From the sequence record NZ_CP040051.1: a DNA stretch of 64,000 nucleotides; one strand, given 5' to 3'. The translations under genes were made by a program, and so were the position numbers. The notes beneath the pieces are model-generated. The model was not told the origin of the DNA. It saw only the letters and a list, made by a program, of their open reading frames with translations, and made no database searches. Positions within the stretch are counted from its first letter, which is position 1. The number at the start of each line of letters is the position of its first letter. Positions 4,911-51,010 of the stretch are shown here, in pieces. This DNA is from a plasmid.

Positions 4911-4923
4911 AGAGGAAAATATC

Positions 4924-9106: not shown

Positions 9107-9875
9107 GGTGGCAATGAGTAAGCTTGTTAAAGTTGCCTTGAGTACTGCGATAACAATGAGTTTAATTGGTTCTAGTTATGCTCAGATTGCTCATACAACG
9201 TACAACCAAAATACGAGAGATTTAACATCTGCCATAGGTGTTTTGACTAAGCAAGAAGGTCTGAGCGCCCAGCAACAGGCAGAATCCGCAATGATCTCTT
9301 CTAAAGCACTAGCTACTGCAATTGGTGCGATAAATATGTCTGATCGTGTATTACGCTTTATTGTTGACGATGCTGGGAGACTCGGTAGTACGCAAACCAC
9401 TACTTGTACTGTTTTTGCTGAACAGCAAGCGGAAAAAATAAAGATTCTTCAGTCATCTATTAATGCGGCCAATATGGTTAGTAATTATATGAAAGTTATG
9501 ATGTCTAATTCAGTTGAGTCTGAAAAGGACAAAATACTTCGTCATGAAAATTACTGTTCTATTGCCGAAGCAGCAATGGGTACATGCACACTTCTACCAA
9601 ATGGTTTACAAGCGGCTGACTCAAATTATGCATTAGTTTTCTCAAAATCTAAGCTACAAGATGACACTTTTAATGCGGCTACAGATTATATAGCGAATAT
9701 TACTGATTCGCGTTTTTCTGCTCAAGATATCTGTTCAAACACTCAGTGTATGACTAAACAAATCGATTTTTTAAACAAGACTTCAGGTAATAGTCTTGCA
9801 GCGTTTGTATTGAGTAATCAAGTTAGTGATCGACTTTCTTATTCATTGAATGCTAATTCATCTGGAGCTAACTAA
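9081..9875 (+). CDS. secreted Cys-containing protein, paralog 1 of 3
   Basis: Signal-peptide-like N-terminus ending 'SYAQ'. Conserved Cys pattern ('TTTCTVF' ... 'ENYCSIAEAAMGTCTL') shared with the next two ORFs. Confidence 0.5.
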   Translation: MMRFLAVVEVAMSKLVKVALSTAITMSLIGSSYAQIAHTTYNQNTRDLTSAIGVLTKQEGLSAQQQAESAMISSKALATAIGAINMSDRVLRFIVDDAGRLGSTQTTTCTVFAEQQAEKIKILQSSINAANMVSNYMKVMMSNSVESEKDKILRHENYCSIAEAAMGTCTLLPNGLQAADSNYALVFSKSKLQDDTFNAATDYIANITDSRFSAQDICSNTQCMTKQIDFLNKTSGNSLAAFVLSNQVSDRLSYSLNANSSGAN

Positions 9876-12144: not shown

Positions 12145-12242
12145 AGTTTTCATAAATGAAAACTTTTAGTTTGAACTATTCTTGCTAGAAGTTTTCATAA
12201 ATGAAAACTTTTTTATTGGGTAAGTTTTCATAAATGAAAACT
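12145..12242. promoter_or_regulatory. array of three identical 20-bp near-palindromic operator sites upstream of the 12263 operon
   Basis: Exact copies of AGTTTTCATAAATGAAAACT at 12145..12164, 12190..12209 and 12223..12242. Each has 9-bp inverted arms around an AA centre. The array lies 20-118 bp upstream of the ATG at 12263. Confidence 0.6.
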
Positions 12243-12262
12243 AATCTAAAAGTGGTGATGAT

Positions 12263-29204: not shown

Positions 29205-29855
29205 ATGTACGCCTTAGCTCAAGAGGAAAAATTTGAAAATTCTTCAGTAGCGGAGAATGTAAGACATAAAATTAAAAAATTCCCAAGAGGTCGAGTTTTT
29301 TCTATTGAAAATATTCCTGAAACATATGGGAATAAAGAAGCGATTCAACGTAATTTGTCTCGATTAGCTCAAAAAGGTGAGATTTATCGAATTAGAAATG
29401 GGATTTACTATAAACCTTTACGAAATAAGTTTCTTAAAGGGCGAATTGTGCCGCCTAATGTCGATGAGGCACTTAAGGTAATTTCAAAAAAATATAACGA
29501 AAAGATTCAACTTCATGGTGGTGCTGCGGCTAATAAACTTGGATTAAGCACTCAAGTTCCAACAATTTACGTTTATTACACAAGTGGTGTCACACGTGAG
29601 CTTGAAATTGCGGGTATACATGTAAAGCTCATTCATACAAATAATGAAGCTTTAATTAAATATGCAGGTACAAATATTGGTTTGGCAATTGCAGCCTTAC
29701 AATATTTAGGAAAGGAGCTGGTTTCGGAGGAAGTGATTCTTAAAATTCGTGAGAATCTTACTGATAAAGAATTTCAAAAATTGATGAAAGCACATATAGC
29801 GGATTGGATGCATAAAACATTGATTAAATATAGCGATATTAATAATGCCTGTTAA
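29205..29855 (+). CDS. AbiEi-like antitoxin (type IV TA/abortive-infection system, transcriptional-regulator-like)
   Basis: N-terminal 'PRGRVFSIENIP...SRLAQKGEIYRIRNGIYYKP' resembles the AbiEi winged-helix domain. Overlaps the downstream NTase gene by 11 bp. Confidence 0.5.
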   Translation: MYALAQEEKFENSSVAENVRHKIKKFPRGRVFSIENIPETYGNKEAIQRNLSRLAQKGEIYRIRNGIYYKPLRNKFLKGRIVPPNVDEALKVISKKYNEKIQLHGGAAANKLGLSTQVPTIYVYYTSGVTRELEIAGIHVKLIHTNNEALIKYAGTNIGLAIAALQYLGKELVSEEVILKIRENLTDKEFQKLMKAHIADWMHKTLIKYSDINNAC

Positions 29856-30891
29856 GTACACACATTTAACGCAAAAAGAGCAGTATGGTATTTTGCATTT
29901 CTCGGCAAGGCATTTTGGAAAGAACAGCATTGTTTTAGAGAAAGATATTTGGGTATGTTGGGTACTTAAACAAATTTTTGAGATGCCAAATCGCTTATCT
30001 ATGGCTTTTAAGGGAGGAACTTCTTTATCCAAAATTTACAAAGTTATTGATCGCTTTTCTGAAGATATTGATATTACACTTGATTATAGACAATTTGAGG
30101 TTTGCAAAGAGCTAAATCTTGGTCCAAACCAAACGGTTCCGGATTCACTAAGTAGATCTGCAATTAGACGCTTATCTGAAGCATTAAAAGCAAACGTGCA
30201 AGAATATACAATGGACGTTGTTATTCCCTATTTGAAATCACAAATTCAACTACTTCCTAATGGTGAGGACTTTGAGGTGATTGCAGAGGGTTCAGAACAA
30301 ATCCGTTTTATATATCCTTCAGCTATTAAAGAGGGCGGAAGAAGAGGATATATCAAAGACTATGTGCTAATAGAATTTGGTGGACGAAATATAATTGATC
30401 CAAGTGAAACTCATTTCATCGAGCCAGATGTAGCAGAAAGCACAGATCATATCGAATATCCAAGTAGCCAAGTAGTAGTTTTGTCACCGGAGAGGACATT
30501 TTGGGAAAAAGCTACCCTTATTCATGTGGAATGTCATCGAGGGGTAAGGGAAAATGCCGAACGTCTTTCTAGACATTGGTTCGATTTAACTTCTTTGTAT
30601 AGTGATGATATTGGTACTCAAGCTATCCAGAATATTGAATTGCTTAAAGACGTCATTTCTCTTAAAAGTACTTTCTATAATGCATCATATGCTCATTATG
30701 GAGAATGTTTAACAGGCAGCTTTAGGTTGATTCCCGATCCAGAAGGGTTAACACATCTTGAAAGTGATTTTAGTAAAATGAATGAAGCCGGTATGCTTAA
30801 TCATAGCTCAATGTCCTTCGAAGATGTAGTAGAACGTATCCGTACAATTGAAGCTCATATGAATCAGATGATCACTGAATTTCATGTTTGA
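29845..30891 (+). CDS. AbiEii-like nucleotidyltransferase toxin
   Basis: Motif 'FKGGTSLSKIYKVIDRFSEDIDITLDY' (GG[ST]xL...RxSxDID NTase signature of the AbiEii/DUF1814 family). Confidence 0.6.
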   Translation: MPVKYTHLTQKEQYGILHFSARHFGKNSIVLEKDIWVCWVLKQIFEMPNRLSMAFKGGTSLSKIYKVIDRFSEDIDITLDYRQFEVCKELNLGPNQTVPDSLSRSAIRRLSEALKANVQEYTMDVVIPYLKSQIQLLPNGEDFEVIAEGSEQIRFIYPSAIKEGGRRGYIKDYVLIEFGGRNIIDPSETHFIEPDVAESTDHIEYPSSQVVVLSPERTFWEKATLIHVECHRGVRENAERLSRHWFDLTSLYSDDIGTQAIQNIELLKDVISLKSTFYNASYAHYGECLTGSFRLIPDPEGLTHLESDFSKMNEAGMLNHSSMSFEDVVERIRTIEAHMNQMITEFHV

Positions 30892-31016: not shown

Positions 31017-31577
31017 TTGAAATTTGGCTGGACTCTACTTTATTATTTTGAATACGTTACGTTTTCAAAAGGTGGCAAAATGAATAGAGCAGTTGAGTTG
31101 GGGCAGGCATGCAGCCATTTATTGTGTGGCAAAGTTTATCCGGATGTGATTTGTGTACATGAAGTAGTTAGATCTTCATCCATAAAAATTCCATTCGTAA
31201 GTGAAAAGATATCAGCGGGATTTCCATCACCAGCTCAAGATTATGTAGATAAAATGATGGATATGAATGAGCATCTTATCCGGAACGAAGCTGCAACTTT
31301 TATTGTCAAAGTTTGCTCGTTATCAATGATAAATGCTGGAATTGATATCAACGATGAGCTTGTGGTTGATCGTAGTTTAGAAGCGAAGAACGACGATATT
31401 GTAGTAGCACTTATAGAAAATGAATTTACTGTTAAGCGATTAAAGATAGAAGGAACGAAAGTCTGGCTAGAGGCAGAGAATCCAGACTACAAGAATATAT
31501 ATTTTAGTGAAGGGGAAAATCTGATCGTATGGGGAGTAGTTACGTTCATTCTAAAAAATGTTAGAAAAAGATCATGA
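31017..31577 (+). CDS. umuD: UmuD-like LexA-family (S24) self-cleaving SOS mutagenesis protein; the likely true start is the internal Met at about 31080
   Basis: 'SAGFPSPAQDYVDKMMDMNEHL' and 'VVDRSLEAKNDDIVVALIENEFTVKRLK' match the UmuD/LexA C-terminal-domain pattern. The track start is a TTG codon. Confidence 0.7.
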   Translation: MKFGWTLLYYFEYVTFSKGGKMNRAVELGQACSHLLCGKVYPDVICVHEVVRSSSIKIPFVSEKISAGFPSPAQDYVDKMMDMNEHLIRNEAATFIVKVCSLSMINAGIDINDELVVDRSLEAKNDDIVVALIENEFTVKRLKIEGTKVWLEAENPDYKNIYFSEGENLIVWGVVTFILKNVRKRS

Positions 31578-32869
31578 ACCACACAAACAAAATTTTTTTA
31601 CTCGTTGATGTCAATAATATGTACACCTCGGTAGAAACGGCTTTTGATCCTTCCTTATCGGGGCGTGCCTGTGTAGTTTTGTCAAGTAATGATGGAAATA
31701 TCGTAGCCAGAAGTCCGGCTGCAAAAAAGCTTGGAATCAAAATGGGTGAACCATTATTTCAAATCCAAGATTTAATAATGAGAAACGATGTTATTGTTCT
31801 TTCAAGTAACTATATTATTTATGGGGAAATGAGCCGGCGTTTTCATAAAATATTAGCTGAATACGTTTCTCCAGAAAACCATGAAATATATTCAGTTGAT
31901 GAAGCATTTCTGGAACTTACAAGTTATAGGGATATATATGATTTGAATCAATGTGCTAAAGACATTAAAGATAAACTAATGAAATTTTTATCTTTGCCCG
32001 TTTGTGTGGGGATTGGACGCACGAAAACAGAGGCTAAGTGCATGAATCATATAGCGAAAACCTATCCACATTTGAACGGTATTTGTAATATTTTTGATAT
32101 TGCTGAAGTAAAAGATTCTATTTATCGTAATACGGATGTTGGAGAGGTTTGGGGGGTGGGCCGGCAACAAAAAAAGAAACTTCAGCTTATGAATATTAAT
32201 ACGATCTATGACCTAATGATGGCTCCACCATCGCATATACAAAGTGTTTTTTCAGTGGTATTAAAGCGTACTGTTCTGGAGTTAAATGGCATATCATGTA
32301 TTGATATAGAGCATACGCCTCCAACAAAAAAACAAATTGTCTCATCACGAACGTTTGGCCAGAGAATAACAAAAATTCATGATTTGAAAGAAGCAATTAT
32401 TAAAAGAACACAAGAAGCGTTTACACGTGCGAGAAATGAACAAGTTCTTGTGGGGTGCCTTATTGTGTTTGGGTATTCAAATCCTTTTGATAAAACAAAG
32501 CCTTTTTATAAAAAGGAACAAAGCGCATCTTTTGCTGTACCTACGGATGATTTAAGGTTACTGGTTCAAACAGCAACAAGATTAATGGATCAAGTCTATA
32601 AGGCCGGAATTGAATTTAAAAAAGCCGGAGTGATTTTGACTTGTCTCGAACCAAAACATACTTACACCTATGATCTGTTAACTGACCATCAGGATCTGGA
32701 GAAAACAGAGCAACTTATGAAGGCTATTGAGGATGTACAACAGATCTTTGGTAAAAACAAAATTGGATTTGGGGGAAGTATGTTTAAAAACCGGATTTGG
32801 AACCTTACAGCAAATCATCAAACTAGAAATTATTTTAGTTTTGATGGAATGATAAAAATTATGAATTAA
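31574..32869 (+). CDS. umuC: UmuC-like Y-family translesion DNA polymerase
   Basis: N-terminal 'FLLVDVNNMYTSVETAFDPSL' (Y-family palm signature). ATGA overlap with umuD. Confidence 0.8.
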   Translation: MNHTNKIFLLVDVNNMYTSVETAFDPSLSGRACVVLSSNDGNIVARSPAAKKLGIKMGEPLFQIQDLIMRNDVIVLSSNYIIYGEMSRRFHKILAEYVSPENHEIYSVDEAFLELTSYRDIYDLNQCAKDIKDKLMKFLSLPVCVGIGRTKTEAKCMNHIAKTYPHLNGICNIFDIAEVKDSIYRNTDVGEVWGVGRQQKKKLQLMNINTIYDLMMAPPSHIQSVFSVVLKRTVLELNGISCIDIEHTPPTKKQIVSSRTFGQRITKIHDLKEAIIKRTQEAFTRARNEQVLVGCLIVFGYSNPFDKTKPFYKKEQSASFAVPTDDLRLLVQTATRLMDQVYKAGIEFKKAGVILTCLEPKHTYTYDLLTDHQDLEKTEQLMKAIEDVQQIFGKNKIGFGGSMFKNRIWNLTANHQTRNYFSFDGMIKIMN

Positions 32870-32936: not shown

Positions 32937-33815
32937 TTATTTATATTGCTTTAAAATTAAAGTCAGATCCTTAATCAGTTCACCTAAAGAATTTACAACT
33001 TCTTCACGTTCTTCAGGATCTTTGATTTCGCCCTTATGTAGTTTCGATACTAACGGTAAGCTTTCTTTAGCTTTCGATAGAATATCCTCAATTACAGTTT
33101 CATTGAGTGAAACTTCTTTTGATTTAGGTTTATCTTTTTCAAGATCTGTTTCAAAAGTCTTTTTGAATTTTTGTACTTCAGCAATACCAATTTTTTTAGC
33201 TGTTGCAGATTGTTTTTCAACCCAAGCACGTACATCTACTTTATGATCACGATATAAAACTGCAATCTCATACATTGCTGAGAAGTCATTTAATAGATTG
33301 CGATTACACATATCTTCCAGAGTTTCGAGAATTTCTTCATCCAACCCATCGGTGATAGCTACAATCTTTGAAACTTTTGCATCACCATAAGCCAGCGTTT
33401 TACCGATTTGACGTTGGCTGTATCCTTTAGCCTTTAAGCGAACAATAGCACGACTAATATCATAAATAGTCATGTCTTCATTCATTGTGTTAGCTGTTAA
33501 CTGGTCCAACTCTGTAAAGCTTTCTACAACAACGGCTGGGATCTTATCAATTCCAGCACGAAGGCTGTTTTTAACTCGTCTATTGCCATCTTTAACAATA
33601 AAACGGTTGCTATCATGAGGATGCTTTATAAGAATAACGGGTATACGAACACCGCTTTCACGAATACTTTCTTCAAGATCTTTTTCTTTAGCTTCAATGA
33701 ATGTCTTACGTGGGTTTTCCGGATCGAGATCGATTAGATGGAGTTCAATTTCTTTTTGTTCGGCATTAGCTTCTGTTTCATCATCCTTAAGGATTGAATC
33801 TAATAACATACTCAT
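32937..33815 (-). CDS. parB: ParB-family partition/centromere-binding protein
   Basis: ParB N-terminal motif 'RFIVKDGNRRVKNSLRAG' (GxRRxxA box). Sits immediately downstream of parA. Confidence 0.7.
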   Translation of the reverse strand: MSMLLDSILKDDETEANAEQKEIELHLIDLDPENPRKTFIEAKEKDLEESIRESGVRIPVILIKHPHDSNRFIVKDGNRRVKNSLRAGIDKIPAVVVESFTELDQLTANTMNEDMTIYDISRAIVRLKAKGYSQRQIGKTLAYGDAKVSKIVAITDGLDEEILETLEDMCNRNLLNDFSAMYEIAVLYRDHKVDVRAWVEKQSATAKKIGIAEVQKFKKTFETDLEKDKPKSKEVSLNETVIEDILSKAKESLPLVSKLHKGEIKDPEEREEVVNSLGELIKDLTLILKQYK

Positions 33816-33818
33816 GAT

Positions 33819-34703
33819 TTATTCTCCTTTACCAGATGTATTGAACACAGATAATTTAAGTTGAGTGCCAACTTGTTTGAATATATTGGTAAATGTTCGT
33901 TTGACATCACGTGATGATGTTTTATTAATATGCCAACAAGCAGTGCCATAAGTGACTGCTTCTTCTATAACATTCTTATCCGTTATATATGCCATATTAG
34001 ATTTATCTTGGTAGAACAAATTGGTTTGCTCAGCCACTTCCAACAACTTAGATAGTTCATTCTTTTGAATATTTGATTTTAAATTAACCATATTGGGAAC
34101 AATACCGCCAATTAATAACTTGGGGTTGTTCGTTTTTTTAATTTTATTAGCAAAAGACAAATAATCTCGAATACCATCCGATGCGTATTGTTTAAGCATT
34201 GTCGGAATTAAAACTACATTTGATACTGATAAAGGTAGAAGCATTAAATTACTTAGAGTAGGGGGTGTGTCGAATATAATAACTGTTTTATATTTCAATA
34301 ACTTACTAATATTATCTTTAAAAATAGTAACTAGATCAACATCGCTACTCGTGTTTATATTAGCGAGTGCTTTAGTTGGTCGAAAAACGCCAATTGAGCC
34401 ATTTTGTAAGTCGCACTTAAGATTATGATTATCTTTAAGAAAAAGAGAAATTGCGTCCCCTAAGTTATGTACAGGTGAGGTTGGTCGCGTCACATATTCT
34501 GGTAATACTGTATTTGAATTGAGCATTAATAAATGACCAGAGCTGTTGCCTTGATTATCAAGGTCCACGACAATTACCTTGTAGCCATGTTGAGAAAAAA
34601 AGTACGCAGAATGTACGGTAAATGTACTTTTACCGACGCCACCTTTTCCATTACCAATAGTTAAGATACCGGCATCTTTAATTTGTGAAGTCTTGTCGTT
34701 CAT
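33819..34703 (-). CDS. parA: ParA-family partition ATPase
   Basis: Deviant Walker A 'GNGKGGVGKSTF' and 'VVDLDNQGN'. Confidence 0.85.
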   Translation of the reverse strand: MNDKTSQIKDAGILTIGNGKGGVGKSTFTVHSAYFFSQHGYKVIVVDLDNQGNSSGHLLMLNSNTVLPEYVTRPTSPVHNLGDAISLFLKDNHNLKCDLQNGSIGVFRPTKALANINTSSDVDLVTIFKDNISKLLKYKTVIIFDTPPTLSNLMLLPLSVSNVVLIPTMLKQYASDGIRDYLSFANKIKKTNNPKLLIGGIVPNMVNLKSNIQKNELSKLLEVAEQTNLFYQDKSNMAYITDKNVIEEAVTYGTACWHINKTSSRDVKRTFTNIFKQVGTQLKLSVFNTSGKGE

Positions 34704-34817
34704 GTGCTTATCCTATTTATAAAAATCAGGGCGAACTCTTGTAGAAATCACTACCCGTCCACCGCATGATTAATAGAATAGCAGAATATTAAATTTATGA
34801 AAGTATTTTTCCAAAAA

Positions 34818-34837
34818 AATTTTCATTTATGAAAACT
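34818..34837. promoter_or_regulatory. operator copy (19/20 match, TT-centre orientation) in the parA upstream region
   Basis: AATTTTCATTTATGAAAACT lies 115 bp upstream of the parA start and abuts the stop of the 34837 ORF. Confidence 0.5.
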
Positions 34838-37960: not shown

Positions 37961-38914
37961 TTAGATTTTTCCGAAAATCATTTCTAAAATGCTTTCATCT
38001 GATAAGCCAGTAGTCATTTTTGGCTCACCTGTTTTTTTGTTTAAGTAAAATGCTGTAGGAACAGCGATTGTTTGACTACCTGTACTTTGTACGGTTGCTT
38101 CAGTAAGGAATTGCACGTTTTCTTCAAGGGCCTTCTTCTCTTCAGGAGTAGGATTGACCACTATATTTGGATCTTTTGAGAACGCTCTTTCGAGTTGCTT
38201 TGGATCCCGAAGAACAGCAGCCGCCAATTTAGCGCCTTCTTCATGTTTACCAAGTAGCGTTGTTGGAATCCATTTGATCGAAAAGCCTTTTTCTACATAT
38301 TTACGTGTTGCGCGGTAGGCATCATGACAATTTGAACAACGAGGATCAAAAACGATATACAGTGTATCAACTGCTGAAGCATTACCTTCTTTTGCACCTT
38401 TTAATTTATCTAGTAAAGAGATAGATGGAGGAACTTCTTTATCCCATTTCCCTACGATTTCGGCAAAATCAACAGCTACGTTACCGCCAGTCGGTGCAGC
38501 AACTCCGGTTGAATTTGCTGGAGCACCACCTTGTTGTGCTTTTTGCAAAATAGGAAGGCTTACACTATCCATTGTTGCTGTATCAAAAGCATTTCCAGTA
38601 ATGACCACTTTTTCATCTTTAGTTGTAAAAACAACTTGTGGCTGGCCATTAATTAGCATGGTCCAAGCAAGTAGTTCGCCAGCCATAGGTTGAACGTTAG
38701 AAACTTGTCCCAGCTTACTCATTTGAGCAAAAAGATTTTCACTATAAAGGTTTGTGCTGTTTGAAGTTACAACTGTAGGAACATTATGTGATTCGTAATA
38801 AAACCATCCTCCAGCCGCACCAAAGCCAAGTAGAGCTGCCAAAGCAACATGGGGAAATTTAAAGCTTGATTTTTTATTGCTGTTACCAAGTGATTTGGTT
38901 TTCATAAAATTCAC
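37961..38914 (-). CDS. periplasmic thioredoxin-fold thiol:disulfide interchange protein (DsbC/TrbB-like)
   Basis: N-terminal TM/signal segment. CxxC in 'FDPRCSNCHDAY'. Sits within the T4SS block. Confidence 0.45.
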   Translation of the reverse strand: MNFMKTKSLGNSNKKSSFKFPHVALAALLGFGAAGGWFYYESHNVPTVVTSNSTNLYSENLFAQMSKLGQVSNVQPMAGELLAWTMLINGQPQVVFTTKDEKVVITGNAFDTATMDSVSLPILQKAQQGGAPANSTGVAAPTGGNVAVDFAEIVGKWDKEVPPSISLLDKLKGAKEGNASAVDTLYIVFDPRCSNCHDAYRATRKYVEKGFSIKWIPTTLLGKHEEGAKLAAAVLRDPKQLERAFSKDPNIVVNPTPEEKKALEENVQFLTEATVQSTGSQTIAVPTAFYLNKKTGEPKMTTGLSDESILEMIFGKI

Positions 38915-38986: not shown

Positions 38987-40357
38987 CTAGTTGACGGTGA
39001 TCTCATTAGCTTTCGGAGGCGCTGGTAAATAAACATGAGGATCGGCGTAGCGATATTGTTTAAGGCTTTCTAAAAGCCCATTCCATCCATAGCTGAAATC
39101 TGGAGAAATCTTTCTCCGGTGGTAATAAGCTTCTGAGGTGTAGTGTGAAAATGCCGCAAGTTGTTCTACATAAACACTAGGTCTACCAACATTCTGAACA
39201 AGAGCCCAAAGCGTGCGGTCATAATTTCTCAACCAGCGAAGCTCACATGGAGCAAGTACCCCTAACGTTCTGGTTTTATAGATCAGTGCAATAAGGGCAG
39301 TACGTACATATGCATGCTTTGAAAAGACTTCTTTAGCTACAGGGTGATTCCAGTATCTCTCGACAATTTTCTGTAATCTTTTTCTTTCAAAATACTTAAA
39401 TTCACGTGGCTCATAATTTTTAGGATTAATAAAAGCTTTTTCTGAAGTTAAGTGCTCAATGGCTTTGTCCCAAAAGTAGTGAAGTAACATATCTTTTTGA
39501 GCTTTAATTTTTTTGAACTCTTTATCAGACATGCGTTCATCTGTAGCACAAGCCATTGGTAAAAAAAGTGCATAAAGAATAATTTCGCCATCGCTTAGAT
39601 TGGATGGTTTATCTAGCATTTGACCAAGTTGATGCATCATCAATTTTTCAAATTTGCTTTGGTCTAGCAGTGGATAAGCATCATCTTTTGGAGAATTTGA
39701 GCCTTTGAAATCATCAAAATCTTCGGCATTTTCAATTTCGTATTTTCTGAATCCATAAACAAGATTATGTATTTTGATAAATTCTCTTGGCGATAAAAGA
39801 AGTCTATAAAACCCTTTGTCGGTCGCATAGTTGGATTGAATAAAACGTTGTATATAGCGTAAATGTGGCTGATAAGATCCCAGCTCTCCAATTAATGATT
39901 CAAGATCATGTTCTTGAACATAGCGTGTGTCCGGTAAGTATTTCAAATTAATTGCATGTTTATACCAGATCCAGCCGACTAAGAGAGCTCCAATAAGAAT
40001 CGTTGGGAAAATGCAGTTTTCAGAGTAAAAGGAAAAAGGAACTACTTTTAAATTCGCTGTACAATGCATTAACGGATTCATTGCGTGATTTGGATCCGGA
40101 TAACATAGCTTTGTAATAGCATTAGTTGTGAAATCCAGATAACCAGCGTTAGAACCAGTTATCTTTTGAATAAATAATTGAAGGTAATAAAATGGAAGTT
40201 CAATTAACCCGTACACGTTTCGAGTAATTGTGATAATTGCCACTTTACCAATTTTCCATCCCCCAAAAACTAATAGAGGGATGCCTACACATAAAACACC
40301 AATCAAAATGAGTGTGTCATCAGTTGATCCATGACTTGTATTATGATTATTTGACAT
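38987..40357 (-). CDS. inner-membrane protein with 2-3 N-terminal TM helices and a large cytoplasmic domain; possibly DotM/IcmP-like
   Basis: Topology and position only. Confidence 0.35.
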   Translation of the reverse strand: MSNNHNTSHGSTDDTLILIGVLCVGIPLLVFGGWKIGKVAIITITRNVYGLIELPFYYLQLFIQKITGSNAGYLDFTTNAITKLCYPDPNHAMNPLMHCTANLKVVPFSFYSENCIFPTILIGALLVGWIWYKHAINLKYLPDTRYVQEHDLESLIGELGSYQPHLRYIQRFIQSNYATDKGFYRLLLSPREFIKIHNLVYGFRKYEIENAEDFDDFKGSNSPKDDAYPLLDQSKFEKLMMHQLGQMLDKPSNLSDGEIILYALFLPMACATDERMSDKEFKKIKAQKDMLLHYFWDKAIEHLTSEKAFINPKNYEPREFKYFERKRLQKIVERYWNHPVAKEVFSKHAYVRTALIALIYKTRTLGVLAPCELRWLRNYDRTLWALVQNVGRPSVYVEQLAAFSHYTSEAYYHRRKISPDFSYGWNGLLESLKQYRYADPHVYLPAPPKANEITVN

Positions 40358-40375: not shown

Positions 40376-41125
40376 TTATCCGACCTGAATCTGACTCCAG
40401 TCTTCAATAGTTGAACTTGATTGTTCATCGAAAGACTCTTGATCAACGGGATTTTGGATTTGATCAATCGTTTCTTGTTTTGGTGAAGCTAAAGTGTATT
40501 CAGGGGTGGGTGAAAGAGCATTGGTATTTAGATCGTCTAAGATAGGTTTCTGTAGAGGATCTGGATGACTAGTTGCTGTAATCATAGTTTCGCTATGAAC
40601 ATAACTTTCTAAAAGTGCAAAGGCTCTGGTGCTTTCAGTATTGAAGCTGGATGCCATGATTTGAATATTCTGGAAAAACTTCGTTTCATTCGTAAGCTCA
40701 ATAAAATCATCAAGGAATGCAGAGATTCCCAATTCAAAAAATTGATTCTCAAGAGCTGCCAGTTCGTTGAAATTCCTATTAGTAACATACGTGTAATACA
40801 TAAAAAGTTTGTATGCCAACATATTGGACATTTCATATAAAGCGGTTAGGCAATAAAGCTCTCTTTGATATTGAGTTTTACCAGTAAGTGTTTTAACAAT
40901 CGCCTCATGATGAAAGTTAAGGGCAATTTTGCTCTCATTTTTTCCAACGGCTCCAATTAACTGAAGTGATTTAGTAGGATGAAAAAAGAAATATGAAATG
41001 AGATGTGCATAGAAGCTATGCACATCAATCTCTTTTATATTCTTAAACTTGTCCAAAAAATCACGTTGGCGCTTAGGTAGCTTGGCTAAACTAACAGAGA
41101 TTCTTAACCGGTGTTTTTGAGGCAT
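40376..41125 (-). CDS. hypothetical protein
   Basis: ORF downstream of the actin-like gene. Confidence 0.35.
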   Translation of the reverse strand: MPQKHRLRISVSLAKLPKRQRDFLDKFKNIKEIDVHSFYAHLISYFFFHPTKSLQLIGAVGKNESKIALNFHHEAIVKTLTGKTQYQRELYCLTALYEMSNMLAYKLFMYYTYVTNRNFNELAALENQFFELGISAFLDDFIELTNETKFFQNIQIMASSFNTESTRAFALLESYVHSETMITATSHPDPLQKPILDDLNTNALSPTPEYTLASPKQETIDQIQNPVDQESFDEQSSSTIEDWSQIQVG

Positions 41126-41138: not shown

Positions 41139-42197
41139 TCAAAGCTTCGAAATATACTTTGCACATTTATACATGCCACGTGCATTCGCAAATTCAGGCT
41201 GTTTTACAAGGTGCCAGTTATCATAGTTGAATCGTTTAAGTAGCTCGTCACCAAGCGTGATTGAACCTCCACCAACGAGCAACACTGCTCCTAGATCTTG
41301 ACCGTCTTGCACATTCACTTTGATAGAGTTTTCAATCTGATCAGTTATTTCAACCTTTGCAGCATTTAAGATTTTTGAAATATCGTGATCTTTCCCGCCA
41401 TGATTATAAATGCCGGTCTTCAAGGCTTTAGAGAGTCGCCAATCTGTAATATTTGAAGAAAGCCCGAAAAACTCCTTAAGATTTTGACTTACCTTATTTT
41501 TTAAAGTAATTATCCCTACATCTAGAGTGTCGCAGCGAGAAGCTTGCATGGTGCCGCCACGGGGATTAATCATTGCAATATCGGTAGTGCGACCACCAAT
41601 ATCGATAATTGCACAACCACCTTCCCATAAATCTTCATACATACTTGAGCGTTTGCCATTATCATCCATGAGAGCATCAAAATAAGCACATTGACCCTCA
41701 GAAAGAACGATATGGTTTAAAATTTGCAAAGGATCATTTTTTTTGTCGTGCTCATAAAGATTGTAAACAGTAGGGTTGTTAAAATCCTTATTAATCAATA
41801 GATTTTGAGTTTTGTCAGCAATCAACTTCTCATTTTTAGCTTTGTCTTTACCACCGTAGTACTGATTTAATGGTAAGCCAGTTGCAATTTTAAATTTACG
41901 GTATTGGCCATCAAAAGCTTGGTGAAGAGCATGGTGCACAAGTGCGACATTCGCATCACTTAGCGGATAATCTTCAGTACGTGTATCAATATGCTCTTTT
42001 GTAAATTCATCGACAGTAAAATACTTGCCATTAACGTGAATGATTTGTTTGTTTACTTCATCGGTATCACCAATAATGGTGCGTCCATTGGCGACTCGAC
42101 TTGGTAGACGAAAAGATTTACCCACTTCACCACAATAAATCTTGATTCCGTCATGGCCATCATCGACGCCAACTGTCAATGTTTTATAACCTTTCAT
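41139..42197 (-). CDS. actin-like ATPase of the ParM/StbA family
   Basis: Phosphate-1 'VGVDDGHDGIKIY', phosphate-2 'IIDIGGRTTDIA' and adenosine motif 'LLVGGGSITLG' are collinear with ParM. Confidence 0.6.
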   Translation of the reverse strand: MKGYKTLTVGVDDGHDGIKIYCGEVGKSFRLPSRVANGRTIIGDTDEVNKQIIHVNGKYFTVDEFTKEHIDTRTEDYPLSDANVALVHHALHQAFDGQYRKFKIATGLPLNQYYGGKDKAKNEKLIADKTQNLLINKDFNNPTVYNLYEHDKKNDPLQILNHIVLSEGQCAYFDALMDDNGKRSSMYEDLWEGGCAIIDIGGRTTDIAMINPRGGTMQASRCDTLDVGIITLKNKVSQNLKEFFGLSSNITDWRLSKALKTGIYNHGGKDHDISKILNAAKVEITDQIENSIKVNVQDGQDLGAVLLVGGGSITLGDELLKRFNYDNWHLVKQPEFANARGMYKCAKYISKL

Positions 42198-42212
42198 ATC
42201 TATTTCCTTTAA

Positions 42213-42479
42213 TTATTTGGGAGATTTAATTTTTCCGAAGAAAAAGCCGATAATGAGCTGGAAAAAATACTTGTATGGCATTTTTAAATAGTTCTCGATT
42301 AGCCAGCATATCGGGACAGCAAAGATGCCGACGATTATCGGAATTTTTGAAATATTCCAAAACAAACATCCGAAAGCGATAAGAAATAGGGCTATAGGGT
42401 TAATGCCTTTTAAACTAGGGTTATTTGAAGCTTTACCCCAATCAATGAAATTGTTGTTGTCTTCCATATCTAACTCCAA
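42213..42479 (-). CDS. small two-TM membrane protein, IcmT/TraK-like by size and position
   Basis: 88 aa; hydrophobic core 'IALFLIAFGCLFW...IIVGIFAVPICWLI'. Sits directly after the DotB-like ATPase. Confidence 0.4.
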   Translation of the reverse strand: MELDMEDNNNFIDWGKASNNPSLKGINPIALFLIAFGCLFWNISKIPIIVGIFAVPICWLIENYLKMPYKYFFQLIIGFFFGKIKSPK

Positions 42480-42481
42480 AA

Positions 42482-43771
42482 CTAGGCTATAAGGGCATCA
42501 AAGCCTTTTTTGCTGATGAGTCCCTTATTCAATAAATCTTTAGCCTGATTTTCAAAATTTGGTGATGAGTTTTCTGTACCTTGTGGATTGTCATTCATCA
42601 TCTTTCGAATGTATTGGATAACAAGTCCATACCCACCAGCCTGAATAGCCAGATCCAAAAGGTCATTACGAATGGATTTAGAGAAAAAGAGGTGTTCTCG
42701 TACACCTATTAATTTTCCCTCTGGCGTCTCAACGAGGCGCTGAGCAATAAATGCATGTGCTGTAGAGATAGTTTCGGTTAATTTACGATGTTGTTGGTCT
42801 GGTGGAACCAAATCCATGATACGAGGTAGTACGTTTGCAACATCGTTACTATGGATTGTTGACATAACGGGGTGTCCCGTCTTTGAGAGCTCAATTGCAG
42901 CAGAGAAAGATTCTTGGTCACGTAATTCAGCAACTAGTAGTAGTGCTGGTTTACGTCTCATTGCTTCTCTTACAGCTAGGCCAAAAGTCATGAAATGTTC
43001 AGGTATCTGACTTTGAACAATGATTGAATGCTTACTTTTAATACCGTCGTATCTGAATTCGATAGGTTCTTCAAGAGTAATAATATTGCCCTGAATATGT
43101 GTATCTTCTTCATATACGTAACGAACCATTGAAGCTAATGTTGTTGATTTTCCGTGACCAGTTTCACCAACAACATAAGTGATGCCTAGTCTCGGAATGG
43201 CTTTTAGAACGAACTCTTCAGTTAGGCCGATTTGATCATAGGTAGGTGGATCAGATGGAATAATACGTTGAACAATTTGAAAGGAAGAGTTGCCAGTTCT
43301 ATCATTACAGGCACTCACATTACAGCGGAAAATGATTTTCTCTTTTTCCACTGCATTCACATGTAACCAGCTTTCATCATTCTGTGTAGTTATATACCCT
43401 TTACCACTTTTCGAATTGCGATCTTGAAATGCGCTACAGTTATACGCGAAATTTAAACCTTTCCCTTTTTTAATTGAGCTTAGTGCTTCATTACCATTAA
43501 TAATGGTTAAAAACATATTAAGCTCAACATCTTTAAGGTTCTTCAGAGTTAATGCATAAAGCTTATTGTAACGACGAATGAGTATTGGTCTACCGGAGTT
43601 GATCAATACGTCACTCGCGTTAAAAGCATTAGCAACAGTTAAGATTTTACGCACATCTTCTTCAGAATTTATGCTGATGTTATCCAAATCAATTGTTTCA
43701 TGTCGCAACATTTGATAGGGGTGTTCAGCTTTGGGCTCTTCAGCGACGGTATCTCTAGCATAAACATTCAT
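42482..43771 (-). CDS. dotB: VirB11/PilT-superfamily secretion ATPase (DotB/TraJ-like)
   Basis: Walker A 'GETGHGKSTT'. Asp box. His box 'TGHPVMSTIHSN'. Confidence 0.7.
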   Translation of the reverse strand: MNVYARDTVAEEPKAEHPYQMLRHETIDLDNISINSEEDVRKILTVANAFNASDVLINSGRPILIRRYNKLYALTLKNLKDVELNMFLTIINGNEALSSIKKGKGLNFAYNCSAFQDRNSKSGKGYITTQNDESWLHVNAVEKEKIIFRCNVSACNDRTGNSSFQIVQRIIPSDPPTYDQIGLTEEFVLKAIPRLGITYVVGETGHGKSTTLASMVRYVYEEDTHIQGNIITLEEPIEFRYDGIKSKHSIIVQSQIPEHFMTFGLAVREAMRRKPALLLVAELRDQESFSAAIELSKTGHPVMSTIHSNDVANVLPRIMDLVPPDQQHRKLTETISTAHAFIAQRLVETPEGKLIGVREHLFFSKSIRNDLLDLAIQAGGYGLVIQYIRKMMNDNPQGTENSSPNFENQAKDLLNKGLISKKGFDALIA

Positions 43772-43783: not shown

Positions 43784-44602
43784 TTATTGTTGAGTTTCAA
43801 TCGCAACAGGTGTTTCAACCGGATCCTTAACGACTGAACGTTCTTTGATGCTTAAAATTCGGCTATTCCACAATTTAGTGTTGTTCACAAATTGAGGTAA
43901 AGAAGTAATCTCAAAGTTGGTCTGGTTCAACATAAGTGTATTGCCGTTACCAGTAAGGGCGATATCACGACGAGCAATTGCTGGCATCGTAATTTTCCCG
44001 TCCATGACAAAACGATGGAATGCAATCATTCCTTTATATGTTTGGTTGAGACGGTTTAATTGATGCTTGAAAATAGCGTCTGCTTCACGAACACCATCTT
44101 CAATTCCTTTATTCATTGCTTCTTTAAAAGCACGTTCTTCGGCACTATTTTTGGGTTTTAACTCGTTAGGTAAGGCGTCCACACCGATTTCATAGCTCTT
44201 CACATTAAACTGTAAAAAGTCACGCCAGTTTGGTGGGGTATGTGAGAAACGAGCATTTTCTTTAATTTCATAGCGGACGCCAAGCACTGAAAGTGTACGA
44301 GGGTTTTGAACATCACTAATATTGTTTGCCTGAACAATGACAGGGGGAACAACAACAGTATTAATCATTAAACGCTGAAAGTCGTAAATAGAATCAAGCT
44401 TTCGTACATTGTTTGGGTTGTAAACGACTTTATCAATTTCAGTCAGACGAGCACGTAATGCATTTCGTGTAGCTGCTTCATGTACTAGTGTTTTGATTGA
44501 TTCAAGTCGAGCTGAGCTTTCAGCTTGTTTTGCAGAGTCATCTTGAGAAATGATGATTGGTGATTGCTGCAAGTAATATTGGTAATTAGGTAAATCTGCC
44601 AT
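43784..44602 (-). CDS. dotC: DotC/TraI-like T4BSS core protein; lacks an N-terminal lipoprotein signal as annotated
   Basis: 'LDSIYDFQRLMINTVVVPPVIV' and 'HTPPNWRDFL' resemble conserved DotC blocks. Sits between the DotD-like and DotB-like genes. Confidence 0.5.
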   Translation of the reverse strand: MADLPNYQYYLQQSPIIISQDDSAKQAESSARLESIKTLVHEAATRNALRARLTEIDKVVYNPNNVRKLDSIYDFQRLMINTVVVPPVIVQANNISDVQNPRTLSVLGVRYEIKENARFSHTPPNWRDFLQFNVKSYEIGVDALPNELKPKNSAEERAFKEAMNKGIEDGVREADAIFKHQLNRLNQTYKGMIAFHRFVMDGKITMPAIARRDIALTGNGNTLMLNQTNFEITSLPQFVNNTKLWNSRILSIKERSVVKDPVETPVAIETQQ

Positions 44603-44643: not shown

Positions 44644-45114
44644 TTAACGATGGATCAATGTGATTGTTTTATCATTTTCATCTACAGCAACAGTTGCAGA
44701 GTTACCAAGTTGTAAGCCAACATCTTTAATGAGATCAAATCCCGTTAATTTGCGTTTGCTAAAGTTTACGATTGGGAGCTGATGAATGTTACCAGCTTCA
44801 ATAAAGCGATATCCGAAGTGATAAGCTGCACTTTGAAGGAGGGTCTGAGGTTCCCCGACATAGTCAACACGAATAACGTCAGTTCTAAAGCTACGTTGAC
44901 GTAAAGCTAAATCTTCGTTAAAGGCTTTTTTATCTAACGCATAAGTTTGTTGTTCAGCTACAGCATCTTGAGCCGCTTGACTCAAAATACCTAAAGGCGA
45001 TTCAACATCAAATTTAGGGCTTGGAACGTAGTAGTAGCTTTGGCATCCAGTCAAAGTGGCAACAGAGATACAAAGGACAGTGAGTGAACGACGAATTGAA
45101 GGTACTATTTTCAT
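44644..45114 (-). CDS. dotD: DotD/TraH-like lipoprotein
   Basis: Lipobox 'LTGC' after the signal peptide. 'AAYHFGYRFIEAG...PIVNF...LIKDVGLQLG' pattern as in the DotD secretin-N0-like domain. Confidence 0.55.
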   Translation of the reverse strand: MKIVPSIRRSLTVLCISVATLTGCQSYYYVPSPKFDVESPLGILSQAAQDAVAEQQTYALDKKAFNEDLALRQRSFRTDVIRVDYVGEPQTLLQSAAYHFGYRFIEAGNIHQLPIVNFSKRKLTGFDLIKDVGLQLGNSATVAVDENDKTITLIHR

Positions 45115-46050
45115 AATTACACCTAGTGTTTGCTATTGTTAGTAGAAGTGCTCAAGGCAGCTTCGGCTTGTAGCAACAAGTATAAATTCTAAATTTTAAA
45201 AAATATATAGTATTAAAAAATAAAAACGCAGAATAAGCGGTCTTGAGTTCATATAAGTTGCGAACTAAAAACGTCATATCAAAAGTTATTGCTAGTTGAG
45301 CTAGTAAGGTTAATTTGTGAACAGTTTCTAATACGAGAAAAGACGAAAATTCTTTAAAAAATCAAAAAAACGATTAATTTGATCTTAAAAGTATGAAATG
45401 TAATGAATAAAAAGAATTTATTTCCAAATAATCTTGAAAACTTGTAGTTAAATTTAAATAAATCTACAAATAAGAAAAACAGATTAAATATTTGGACAAA
45501 AGTCGACAAGTCTAACGTCTAATTAAAATCAAAATAGAAATTTTTATAATGTAAAGCGTAGTATATAACATGGAGAAATTTATAGAATTATTTGATTTTA
45601 TTAATATTATTTTATTATTTTAATGAAAATAACTGATATAAGATATAATTTTTATTCCAATAATATAAGTATGAATAATATTCTATATATTTTATAGAAA
45701 TGAATATTGTTAAAAAATAAAATTTCTTATTTTTTCAATTAAGAAAATAAAGACCATTTAACTTTTTCTATTTATGTAAATAAGATTTAAAAAAATAATT
45801 AACATGTAGCATCACGTGAATGGTTGAAAGTTATATCAAGTTAAATGCTAATGAATGTACTTAGTATCTGCTTAAAAGTGGAATTTAATAAAGTTAAGGA
45901 TGGGTAACGAGCAAGGAGTGTTGCAAACGGTAAGTTTTTAAGCAAAACTGCAATCTGATGAGACATGATCTAGATCGAAGTGAAAGCAGTTGAGCAACAC
46001 TCCGTATCTGATAGGTGTAATAAATTTAAAATTATCGTGGTGTTTGAATT
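45115..46050. other. approximately 930-bp non-coding region with an extremely AT-rich core, about 45180..45900; candidate oriT/oriV or divergent control region
   Basis: No ORF longer than 60 aa. Long A/T runs. Contains a TCACGTGA palindrome and, at its right edge, a structured element (see next feature). Confidence 0.3.
45915..46003 (+). promoter_or_regulatory. 10-bp inverted repeat (GGAGTGTTGC / GCAACACTCC) enclosing a GATCTAGATC palindrome, immediately upstream of the recombinase gene
   Basis: Arms at 45915..45924 and 45994..46003. Perfect palindrome at 45967..45976. Confidence 0.4.
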
Positions 46051-47955
46051 ATGAAGGCTGGCTCGGAATTAGAATTCAATGCAAAAAAATATCCAAAAAG
46101 TATTAAAGGCTTGGAGACACGTGTATTTGATTATTCTGAGAAAACAATAATCAGATATACCAATGTTTGGAAAAAACTTTTAAAACAATATGGGTTAGAA
46201 GATCAAGTTTTGGTAAATCCAGAATATACGCTGGAAACAGTAGTAAATAATCTTATTTCTGAATATGGAAATAATGAATTGCGAAACTCCACTTTTAGAC
46301 ACTATCGATCTGCACTTATTCATCGTATGGGGGTGATCTTGAGTGAACAAAAGAGGGATGGTGAGAAGCTTGTAGCATTGCCTAAGCTGGCAAGACTTTT
46401 TGAAAGTTTGAAAGCAGTTGAGGCGACTGATGATAAAAAACAGCCGAACCGATCTAGCAGTTCGAAGCTCAAGTACTTTCCAAAAGATCTTTATGAATTT
46501 GTGTTAGGCAGCAGTTTTAATTTGAACAGGTCTAATTTGGGGTTGATGTTAAAGCTGTTTATAGAAGCAAATACTATGATTGGATTGAGGCCAGTGGAGT
46601 GGCAAAGCTTAAGGTTGGCATGTGATGTTGAAGAGAGATGCTTATCTCTTGTGGTCGATAATGCAAAAAATACTCAGGGTAGAGCGAACGGCGACATAAG
46701 GATTCTTAATATGATTGAGCCTGATCCAATCAAGCTTAAGAATCAATTAAGGGCAATACTTGGGTTTAAGAGATTGCTCGATTTAGAACTGGAGGCAAGA
46801 GCTAGAAAGTTCTTAACTGAAAGAAGTAGAGAGACTAATGAAACTTATAAAATTTACATCGCAAGTAAAGAGCCAGACAGTTTTGAATTTGAGTTCATTC
46901 ATTGGAAAGGTTCCCAAACCGTTAACTGTATAGAAGCCGTAAACTGTATAAAACCTGAGAATGGAACTGGAGAAACCGTAAACTGGATTTCTACTGAAAA
47001 CGAACTTGAGCAAAATATTGAAGATAGAACAAACGGCGCATTACCTTCCATAAACGGACCAGATACCGTAAACAGAATATCGTCCGGACATGGCCAGAAT
47101 ACGACTGACGGCAATAAAGCTGGCGGTAGTGAATTTAACTATGAGCGAGTGATTGAAGACGGCGCTCATTCTTCCGTAAACGGAATAAATACCGTAGACA
47201 GAATATGGGCCGTAGACGGAATAAATAAAGTTGATGGGAGTGATCACGGCGCATTACCTTCCGCGAACGGACCAGATACCGTAAACGGAATAAAGGCCAT
47301 AGACGGAAATAATACAGTTGATGGAATTAACGCCGTTGCCGGAATAAAGGGGGGTGGGACAAATCAAGCCATTTCTACTGCTTCTACTGCGCCAGCTCCA
47401 GAGTTGACCGACTTCGGATTTAATTCAGTTGCCGGAGAAATACAGCAAACTGGTAGAAATACCGATCACGGAAAAATGGCTGCCTTATTGGGTGCTTATA
47501 ACGCCGTGGTAATTGAAAGTTATGTTGATCGTTATGGCACGATTCAATATGCACTATGTCAAAGTGTGATGGATTCATTGCAACGTAAATTAAAAGATAT
47601 GAGCAATGAATTTTATGAAAAGAAAAAGTTTGGTTTACCTGAAGAGTTAGCTTCAAATAAAGCAAATGCTACGATTTACAGTACACGCCATCAAGCGGTA
47701 GCTAATCGAAAAAAATATAAGTGGAAAGAAGAAGAGGTCGCAGGTTGGTTTGGGCATGCAAGTGTTCAAACGGCGTCAAGACACTATGGTGTGGCTGGTA
47801 AAGGTTGGGGGGATAAACCTATGTTTAGAACTTCGAAATTTAGTCTTGAAAAAGTCAGAATGAGAGAGCAGCAAGTTAATCAAACCAAACAGCTCACGGA
47901 AGAAGATGTATTAAATTCGGTTTTATCTGATAAAGATTTAGATGATCTATTGTAA
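46051..47955 (+). CDS. tyrosine site-specific recombinase (integrase) with an internal repeat insertion
   Basis: C-terminal 'FGHASVQTASRHYG' (LGHxxxxxTxxY catalytic Tyr box). 'STRHQAVANR' (HxxR). 'LRPVEWQSLRL' (box I Arg). Confidence 0.65.
   Translation: MKAGSELEFNAKKYPKSIKGLETRVFDYSEKTIIRYTNVWKKLLKQYGLEDQVLVNPEYTLETVVNNLISEYGNNELRNSTFRHYRSALIHRMGVILSEQKRDGEKLVALPKLARLFESLKAVEATDDKKQPNRSSSSKLKYFPKDLYEFVLGSSFNLNRSNLGLMLKLFIEANTMIGLRPVEWQSLRLACDVEERCLSLVVDNAKNTQGRANGDIRILNMIEPDPIKLKNQLRAILGFKRLLDLELEARARKFLTERSRETNETYKIYIASKEPDSFEFEFIHWKGSQTVNCIEAVNCIKPENGTGETVNWISTENELEQNIEDRTNGALPSINGPDTVNRISSGHGQNTTDGNKAGGSEFNYERVIEDGAHSSVNGINTVDRIWAVDGINKVDGSDHGALPSANGPDTVNGIKAIDGNNTVDGINAVAGIKGGGTNQAISTASTAPAPELTDFGFNSVAGEIQQTGRNTDHGKMAALLGAYNAVVIESYVDRYGTIQYALCQSVMDSLQRKLKDMSNEFYEKKKFGLPEELASNKANATIYSTRHQAVANRKKYKWKEEEVAGWFGHASVQTASRHYGVAGKGWGDKPMFRTSKFSLEKVRMREQQVNQTKQLTEEDVLNSVLSDKDLDDLL
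46915..47352 (+). repeat. in-frame degenerate tandem DNA repeat inside the recombinase gene
   Basis: Repeated 'ccgtaaacgg(a/t)ata' units encode the T/D-V-N/D-G/R-I peptide repeats. Contains a near-identical 42-bp direct repeat at 47031..47072 and 47245..47286. Confidence 0.55.
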
Positions 47956-48038
47956 ATAAAATTGCATTCAGGTATTTTTAAAAATAGATATATCTTTTTT
48001 TAAAAATACGGTGGCTGGTATGCTGTTCGATACAAAAA

Positions 48039-50858: not shown

Positions 50859-51010
50859 GTGCAAGCTATTTATAATTAGAAACTATAAATTTTTTAAAAC
50901 TAAAAAGTTTTCTGAAATATTTTTATTTTCTTAGGTAATTTTAAAAAAAAGATATTGCATATTTTTAAAAATACTAAGACAATAGCCACTATAAGCAACT
51001 GACACTAGAT

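Follow-up and report, generated by a model that had tools for sequence, protein, structure and literature searches.

A ParM-family actin-like ATPase gene maintained within type IVB secretion operons of Acinetobacter plasmids and their relatives

The subject of this report is a gene for an actin-like ATPase at positions 41139-42197, minus strand, of a 64,000-nucleotide stretch of plasmid DNA from sequence record NZ_CP040051.1; the whole stretch is called the window below. The gene lies inside an operon for a type IVB secretion system (T4BSS) and directly upstream of an open reading frame (ORF) for a 249-residue protein, and the two products together are comparable in layout to the ParM and ParR proteins of type II plasmid partition systems. 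The minus-strand order is dotD-dotC-dotB-icmT/traK-parM-like-249-residue ORF-dotM-dsbG-like, after which come several hypothetical proteins, ParA, and ParB. The genes of this region, with the evidence for each assignment, are as follows.

44644-45114, minus strand: DotD/TraH lipoprotein, first gene of the cluster (PF16816, 7e-8)
43784-44602, minus strand: DotC/TraI lipoprotein (PF16932, 2e-38)
42482-43771, minus strand: DotB/TraJ secretion ATPase (T2SSE, 4e-30; TIGR02524 DotB, 1e-60)
42213-42467, minus strand: IcmT/TraK-family small membrane protein, 84 residues (NF038220, E=0.02; positional orthologs)
41139-42197, minus strand: ParM-family actin-like ATPase by profile and predicted fold, 352 residues (Pfam, Protein Data Bank profile search, AlphaFold2 model, Foldseek, invariant catalytic residues)
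40376-41125, minus strand: candidate ParR-like adaptor, 249 residues (topology of the AlphaFold2 model, conserved C-terminal peptide)
38987-40357, minus strand: DotM/IcmP-like coupling-complex protein (PF23127 DotM_C, 2e-28; NF033890, 4e-26)
37961-38914, minus strand: DsbG-like thiol:disulfide interchange protein (NF008657, 3e-14)
33819-34703 (parA) and 32937-33815 (parB), minus strand: type I partition genes (AAA_31/CbiA/ParA and ParB_N domains)

The ParM-like ORF runs from an ATG to a stop codon, with a Shine-Dalgarno sequence, AGGAAA, located 7 nt 5' of the ATG. The junctions that flank it are 13-15 nt long (15 nt to icmT, 13 nt to the 249-residue ORF), each with a Shine-Dalgarno sequence, and scans of this gene block found no internal promoter or terminator signal above chance. 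The original prediction, made from the letters and a list of ORFs, had placed the gene in a dotD-dotC-dotB-icmT operon, between an icmT-like gene and a gene for a DotM-like protein. The neighbors are as it described, DotD, DotC/TraI, and DotB being encoded upstream and a DotM_C protein downstream, except that the 249-residue ORF separates the ParM-like gene from dotM. The type I ParAB system it reported on the same element is likewise present, on the same strand as the ParM-like gene and approximately 6.4 kb downstream of it. The icmT gene probably starts at the ATG at 42467, giving 84 residues, as read from its ribosome-binding site; the ORF list begins at a TTG at 42479. Its product matches the IcmT/TraK model NF038220 at only E=0.02. 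Positional orthologs in the loci surveyed below score from 8e-11 to 1.7e-14, at or above the cut-off, with 1.7e-14 (53.8 bits) for the ortholog in locus L012. By orthology, the small membrane ORF of the window is IcmT/TraK.

All three actin-fold nucleotide motifs originally quoted for the 352-residue protein were located in its translation: VGVDDGHDGIKIY at residues 9-21 (phosphate-1), IIDIGGRTTDIA at 197-208 (phosphate-2), and LLVGGGSITLG at 306-316 (adenosine). The key residues G10, D12, D13, G14, K19, E167, D199, G201, G202, T204, D206, G309, and G310 do not vary among 28 aligned homologs, whose identity to the protein ranges from 31 to 62%. Pfam assignments, all above their gathering cut-offs, are MreB-like_C (4e-17), StbA_N (3e-10), ALP_N (3e-9), and the ParM C-terminal family (4e-8). 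A search of the Protein Data Bank (PDB) with a family profile finds R1 ParM at 1e-28 and pCBH ParM at 2e-25, followed by pSK41 ParM, Alp12, and Ta0583; the single sequence, used with no profile, matches R1 ParM at 1e-6. Structure prediction followed by fold comparison had been suggested as a check on the family assignment. The AlphaFold2 (AF2) model has a predicted local distance difference test score (pLDDT) of 94.4 and a predicted template-modeling score (pTM) of 0.91, and its best Foldseek matches are segregation actins, headed by R1 ParM, pCBH ParM, Ta0583, pSK41 ParM, and Alp7A. Ranks 1-22 are all ParM, Alp, or Ta0583 entries, MreB and Hsp70 appear from rank 28 on, and no PilM or FtsA structure is found among the top 50. 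The profile match to FtsA is trivial (E=0.005). PDB entry 9rmi (2026), a CorM filament with CorR from Anabaena, is also among the fold and sequence matches; it represents a ParM-plus-adaptor pair outside classical plasmid partition.

By profile and predicted fold, the product of 41139-42197 is a genuine ParM-family actin-like ATPase. An Hsp70-type or sugar-kinase reading, the alternative raised along with the original prediction, is rejected on the Pfam, PDB profile, and fold-ranking results, all of which favor ParM. The protein scores far below cut-off against both the R1-type ParM equivalog NF010498 (42.6 bits, cut-off 417) and the PRTRC protein D model TIGR03739 (63.6 bits, cut-off 214.8), and therefore represents its own ParM subfamily and is an ortholog of neither. 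A PRTRC-D reading is rejected both on that score and on the absence of PRTRC context. RefSeq labels the gene "ParM/StbA family protein".

The 249-residue protein has no match in Pfam or NCBIfam. Deep profile searches returned 6 relatives from a clustered set of 5.8 billion sequences and 7 among 1.84e9 representatives, too few for a good alignment. The AF2 model contains two beta-alpha-alpha units, E7-12/H18-29/H35-48 and E66-71/H74-81/H85-115 (pLDDT approximately 90), then further helices to residue 162 and a disordered tail from 164 to 249. Because only two strands are present in the model, they must pair with each other, and the pairing would form the ribbon of a single-chain tandem ribbon-helix-helix (RHH) module, which the protein is predicted to contain. 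It ends in the peptide DWSQIQVG; the pattern (D/E)W(S/T)(Q/H)IQ is conserved in the small alignment, in which the linker varies. Permissive Pfam searches with eight adaptor orthologs gave one faint match only, to PF10784 (E=0.087). ParR of pB171 (2jd3) is a sub-threshold match at E=0.45, and an hhalign comparison of the adaptor N-terminus with its best profile match, IncI1 ParR (PF10784), gives P=6e-4 and a probability of 29%. These three weak matches to ParR share one register.

The positional orthologs of the adaptor cannot be aligned overall, yet they keep a C-terminal Trp/hydrophobic motif. Betaproteobacterial loci have two ORFs in this position, one of approximately 70-80 residues that is RHH-like and one of 185-245 residues that begins RHH-like and continues through a Pro/Ala-rich linker to a tail of the type DWSRMRGLAG, DWSRFRGVAG, or NWGRFAGIAG. 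Other lineages have a single ORF of 126-185 residues ending in SAFMG, AFLGGLM, GIFSGG, or KNFFGQ, and a chromosomal clade, described below, has an adaptor of 84-110 residues ending in KLFGIK or GLFGLD. A true IncI1 ParR (PF10784, 7.6e-28) ends in ...AENMFGDD, so that its MFG-containing tail is akin to those of the adaptors. Since homology is sub-threshold and the layout is shared, we call the 249-residue protein ParR-like in architecture, with homology unproven. The earlier suggestion of a ParR-like adaptor finds support in the layout (predicted tandem RHH module, disordered linker, conserved C-terminal peptide) and, weakly, in the three sub-threshold sequence matches.

Copies of the ParM-like protein at 100% or 99.7% identity are encoded by 62 sequenced Acinetobacter plasmids. 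These include pAB3 of ATCC 17978, which MOB-suite types as MOBP, mating-pair-formation class I (MPF_I), and conjugative. The window is part of a large conjugative Acinetobacter plasmid of the pAB3 type. Among Acinetobacter plasmids in PLSDB, 142 encode this DotC and 143 this ParM, essentially one set. The Dot/Icm-like system of pAB3 is essential for transfer, and GacS/GacA controls its dotDCB and dotIHGF genes, the dotDCB promoter being GacS/GacA-dependent (PMC10746170). According to one survey, plasmids of this lineage code for a ParM-like protein and possibly possess a second, type II, partition system (PMC7315799; see also PMC10117892). Actin-like proteins go unmentioned in a 2025 review of the components of type IV secretion systems (T4SS). 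Our own literature search, whose coverage was incomplete so that an earlier description is possible, found no report of conserved embedding of ParM in T4BSS operons, of a tandem-RHH adaptor, or of iterons at T4BSS operon starts.

Placement of the gene in other bacteria was examined in a locus scan that used one genome per GTDB species and returned 80 loci, which were compared with the proteins of the window. At least 33 of the 80, from Gamma- and Betaproteobacteria, have the ParM-like gene with DotC/DotB within 10 kb. The exact order DotD-C-B-IcmT-ParM occurs in 20 loci, with DotM and a Dsb-like gene downstream where the contig permits, while in at least 13 further loci DotC/DotB are arranged differently but lie within 10 kb of the ParM-like gene. 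One of these alternatives, ParM-small ORF-DotD-DotC-DotB, is also found in the annotated Achromobacter plasmid pA82, outside the scan. Genera represented among T4BSS-linked loci include Rhodanobacter, Thauera, Massilia, Paracidovorax, Zoogloea, Neisseria, Cupriavidus, Gallionella, and Pusillimonas. The neighborhood is common to annotated plasmids at 62, 36, 34, and 30% ParM identity (Acinetobacter sp. 16, A. lwoffii, Serratia symbiotica, and Alteromonas mediterranea). A neighbor-joining tree shows T4BSS-linked members extending over most of the clade around the query, and ParM identity follows that of DotB (Spearman 0.85) and of DotC (0.80) over 36 points that are not phylogenetically independent. 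Some T4BSS-linked elements lie on multi-megabase, probably chromosomal, contigs, that of L029 being an example.

Judged from gene order and sequence divergence, the placement beside dotC/dotB is not accidental, being kept in at least 33 of 80 loci with a divergence that tracks DotC/DotB. Consistent absence from orthologous operons, which would have told against the original prediction, is not what we see; the gene is present in orthologous operons. Two further features of the syntenic loci may be recorded here. The DsbG-like gene is kept directly after DotM. In the Serratia symbiotica plasmid pSsAf24.1-1 (L004), parA-parB are inserted between dotB and icmT in the opposite orientation (2768-5660), with four to five 38-bp tandem repeats beside parA and a separate GTGT-type array beside icmT-parM.

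The association has limits, in that two derived groups no longer share the T4BSS context. A sister clade at approximately 28-30% identity (L064, L068, L073, L081, and related loci) is found in ICEclc/pKLC102-like integrative and conjugative elements (ICEs), near genes for AcaB, RadC, DUF3577, DUF2857, DUF2859, and an integrase; DUF3577 and RadC genes follow the ParM-like gene. A second group outside T4BSS loci is chromosomal (the Ferrovum-type clade) or near ParAB. Because these distant homologs, at 30% identity or less, reside in ICEs and chromosomes, the T4BSS link is not valid for the whole ParM-like family recovered. An embedded ParM is absent from the IncI1 and IncL/M loci, where traH-traI-traJ-traK is followed by nuc and/or an LPD7 primase gene, and from Pantoea and S. 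entomophila plasmids, where traH-I-J-K is likewise followed by nuc/primase. The ParM-type partition genes of IncL/M were considered as possible occupants of the slot after traK; they are not there. The Legionella T4BSS is not known to have a ParM-like component. The original statement that such a protein is not a canonical component is accurate for the IncI1 and IncL/M loci, but it must be qualified for a large second subgroup of MPF_I, in which the gene is conserved.

Repeat arrays accompany the cassette in several relatives. The 150-bp dotB-icmT gap of L012 consists of approximately 13 consecutive 11-bp units (nnTGTGGnnnn). Throughout this 21-kb locus, the core motif clusters only at 4341-4496 (the start of dotI-dotH-dotG, a divergent operon), at 6439-6666 (upstream of dotD), and at 9560-9693 (before icmT-parM), with the copies on one strand at 11-bp spacing. 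Loci L021, L024, and L027 have lineage-specific motifs at equivalent positions, with k-mer spacing peaks at 11, 22, 33, and 44 bp (z = 8-22). These four carriers of three-start arrays are betaproteobacterial and Xanthomonadales-type relatives. The GTGT-type array of Serratia stands immediately before icmT-parM, and in Cupriavidus (L029) 6-7 units of 10 bp lie approximately 130 bp upstream of the ParM-like gene. Taken as sequence, the arrays in relatives have the parC type of architecture. Their occurrence at three T4BSS operon starts points to a role for the binding protein in regulating those operons as well, and by their sequence and position they resemble one regulon that covers the entire transfer apparatus. 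We infer that the RHH proteins are the iteron binders.

The best profile and fold match, R1 ParMRC (PDB 1mwm, 4a61, 4a62), has the same nucleotide motifs and an adaptor gene directly downstream, whose product pairs an RHH-like N-terminus with a docking-type peptide at the C-terminus, as predicted for the 249-residue protein; direct-repeat arrays of 10-11-bp units in relatives of the window system add to the likeness. The differences are substantial. R1 ParM is approximately 19-20% identical to the ParM-like protein, the window cassette is embedded in a T4BSS operon without a promoter or parC of its own, R1 ParR is small and dimeric whereas the adaptor has two predicted RHH-like units per chain, and the arrays in relatives of the window system are spread over three T4BSS operon starts. 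R1 ParM and ParR bind TraI, TraD, and TraC and promote the initiation of transfer (PMC4949242).

SXT/R391 elements carry srpMRC, a ParMRC-type locus that stabilizes the excised element and whose deletion cuts transfer only a little, 4- to 14-fold (PMC4489591). Like the cassette described here, it and a related IncA/C locus are ParM-type systems on conjugative elements, expressed only with the transfer regulon, and the srpMRC adaptor also is without recognizable ParR homology (PMC4489591). Unlike that cassette, srpMRC is situated in an integrase operon with its own srpC upstream rather than inside mating-pair-formation genes, and no close sequence relation between the two was seen. The T4SS of SXT/R391 is of class MPF_F, versus MPF_I for the window system. 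The ParM/ParR pair of IncI1 plasmids (StbA/StbB-type, as in pND12_96) comes from the same MPF_I plasmid class, with a ParM 22.6% identical to ours, but its genes lie next to ParA in the maintenance/leading region, at a distance from traH-I-J-K.

Precedents also exist for RHH proteins that serve more than one purpose or that work with a secretion system. Omega of pSM19035 binds iterons in several promoters and is both a global repressor and a centromere-binding protein. VirC2 of Agrobacterium, an RHH protein, is encoded with a T4SS, as is the ParA-like, partition-type ATPase VirC1, and the two recruit the T-strand, the DNA substrate of that system, to it. Omega and VirC2 pair with ParA-type (Walker) ATPases, not actin-like ones, and have no sequence relation to the window cassette.

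The explanation we prefer, to which we give a probability of roughly 60%, is that the ParM-like and 249-residue proteins form a ParM/ParR-type DNA-positioning cassette that is transcribed and inherited together with the rest of the dotD-dotC-dotB-icmT...dotM block in a broad I-type subgroup. The N-terminal RHH module of the adaptor would bind repeated plasmid sites, which in relatives would be the iteron arrays of 10-11-bp units that precede icmT-parM and stand where the other T4BSS operons begin, and the adaptor would double as an operator-binding repressor of transfer genes. Regulatory wiring of this kind would keep cassette and T4BSS together. The conserved C-terminal peptide would dock on ParM, by analogy with R1 ParR, and ATP-driven polymerization, expected from family membership, would move or position plasmid copies. 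Expression from the transfer operon would tie the activity of the cassette to the transfer-competent state, and this activity would supplement ParAB. Cargo movement may help transfer-competent cells to segregate the plasmid, may deliver DNA to the coupling complex, or may do both. The two possibilities first suggested for the gene were a second partition system and a cytomotive element recruited to the secretion machine; the evidence favors a T4BSS-coupled ParMR cassette over either alone.

Several observations weigh against this explanation. Five search methods (repeat finder, TRF, k-mer spacing, a sliding phased-pair scan, and k-mer enrichment) found no iteron or centromere array near the window operon; lag autocorrelation was too noisy to serve, owing to coding periodicity. 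The dotB-icmT gap, the site of the array in relatives, is closed to 14 bp in the window, and no 10-11-bp phasing is found upstream of dotD. The region 42198-42480, where centromere-like iterons had been proposed, turns out to be icmT/traK coding sequence and the 15-nt junction, with no phased array. Even in relatives, another regulator could be the iteron binder. For the 249-residue protein, only two of five AF2 models are confident, homology to ParR stays below threshold throughout, and the fold search is not significant, its best matches being DndE and an F-relaxosome chain at E of approximately 0.6, so that we claim no fold assignment. An RHH adaptor was not seen downstream of ParM in the ICE-borne sister clade. 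The T4BSSs of IncI1 and IncL/M work without an embedded ParM, which is therefore not needed for T4BSS function generally. ParAB is already present on the plasmid, which would make a role in segregation redundant. The deletions made in pAB3 covered only recognized Dot/Icm orthologs, and the ParM-like gene goes unmentioned in that work (PMC10746170).

A more demanding reading, in which the filament and adaptor are obligatory to the transfer apparatus of this large, little-studied I-type subgroup, provide a cytomotive step that takes the plasmid or relaxosome to the DotL-DotM coupling complex, and are in addition the master repressor of the T4BSS operons, strikes us as doubtful. If it were true, loss of the cassette would abolish or strongly cut the transfer of pAB3-type resistance plasmids.

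The alternative that fares best is a dedicated conjugation factor, whose filament and adaptor either deliver the plasmid or relaxosome to the coupling complex of DotL and DotM or activate that complex, and take no part in segregation. The location of the gene between icmT and dotM, in a transcription unit shared with T4BSS genes, agrees with it, as do the deep synteny and co-divergence with DotB/DotC even where ParAB is also carried and the presence of the cassette on probably chromosomal contigs such as L029. Recruitment of a DNA substrate by VirC1/VirC2 offers a parallel, and R1 ParM and ParR, through their binding of transfer proteins, are needed for efficient initiation of transfer (PMC4949242). 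It must then be explained how IncI1 and IncL/M T4BSSs transfer DNA with no ParM-like gene, and why the arrays in relatives stand at operon starts rather than at a recognized oriT. Survival of a ParM-plus-RHH pair outside any T4BSS, in the chromosomal Ferrovum-type clade, suggests instead an autonomous ParMR function. We hold this alternative to be possible, if unlikely.

An ordinary second, type II, partition system, located among transfer genes by chance and unlinked to T4BSS function or regulation, is improbable. ParM family membership and a ParR-like partner would fit it, many plasmids have two par systems (IncI1, for example, has ParA plus ParM/ParR), and it has already been suggested for this plasmid lineage (PMC7315799). 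Par cassettes, however, are normally mobile between backbones, whereas the place of this one beside dotC/dotB is held from 62% down to approximately 30% identity and across two proteobacterial classes, with divergence tracked. The window leaves no room for a promoter or parC belonging to the cassette itself, and iterons in relatives stand at other T4BSS operon starts as well. Least probable is a non-polymerizing, PilM/FtsA-like scaffold on the cytoplasmic tails of the T4BSS, or an RHH protein that is solely a T4BSS repressor modulated by ParM: the adjacent genes for small membrane proteins (IcmT, DotM), the arrays at operon starts in relatives, and the trivial FtsA match point that way, but PilM and FtsA are missing from the top 50 fold matches, the best of which are all filament-forming segregation actins, and a conserved C-terminal peptide on a predicted DNA-binding protein better fits an adaptor.

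Plasmids of the pAB3 type spread multidrug resistance and control the type VI secretion system in Acinetobacter baumannii. The link between partition and conjugation has so far come from few experiments, such as those on R1 ParM/ParR with TraI and TraD; here it is written in gene order across many genera and, in relatives, in operator sites as well. In these elements, a genetic link appears to join the positioning of the plasmid to its transfer, and the cassette probably regulates the T4BSS. It would represent a conserved accessory module added to one branch of MPF_I, missing from present lists of components and from detection models, which derive from IncI, IncL/M, and Legionella systems. It would also provide a natural system in which to study cooperation between a secretion machine and a cytoskeletal mover of DNA, and may reveal a regulator of transfer genes.

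Two further features of the window concern possible control sites.

45115-46050: AT-rich 936-bp intergenic region upstream of dotD, in which no helically phased iterons were detected
47972-48009 and 50935-50974: pairs of near-palindromic, A/T-rich 16-mers resembling GTATTTTTAAAAATAC, 22-24 bp apart (22 bp in the first pair), candidate operators

The 16-mer resembling GTATTTTTAAAAATAC has 11 matches with up to three mismatches, versus 2.2 expected, and none of 100 shuffles reaches 11. Both pairs stand where plus-strand blocks of T4BSS genes begin. Any link between these sites and the 249-residue protein is speculative. Another motif, ATACGGYGGYTG, found twice (48006 and 48209), was rejected because it does not recur in informative places. 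Elsewhere in the window, the 23-bp palindrome AGTTTTCATAAATGAAAACTTTT occurs three times at 12145-12245, upstream of an ORF for a 1244-residue LPD1-domain protein, and a related half-site, ATTTATGAAA, occurs twice just upstream of parA (34793-34834). From their sequence, AGTTTTCATAAATGAAAACTTTT and ATTTATGAAA may represent a shared operator or a parS-like site.

An ORF of 634 residues at 46051-47955, between two divergent T4BSS operons, has no Pfam match and contains internal 18-nt repeats (47174-47227). It is labeled "integrase" in pKO16_VIM, and L012 has a weakly Phage_integrase-like ORF at the same position. Other cargo and backbone genes of the window, at 29845-30891, 31574-32869, 69-4910, and 27438-29096, encode an AbiEii toxin, a UmuC-like Y-family polymerase, a 1613-residue protein that joins an N6-methylase to a Strawberry-notch-like helicase, and LPD1-domain proteins.

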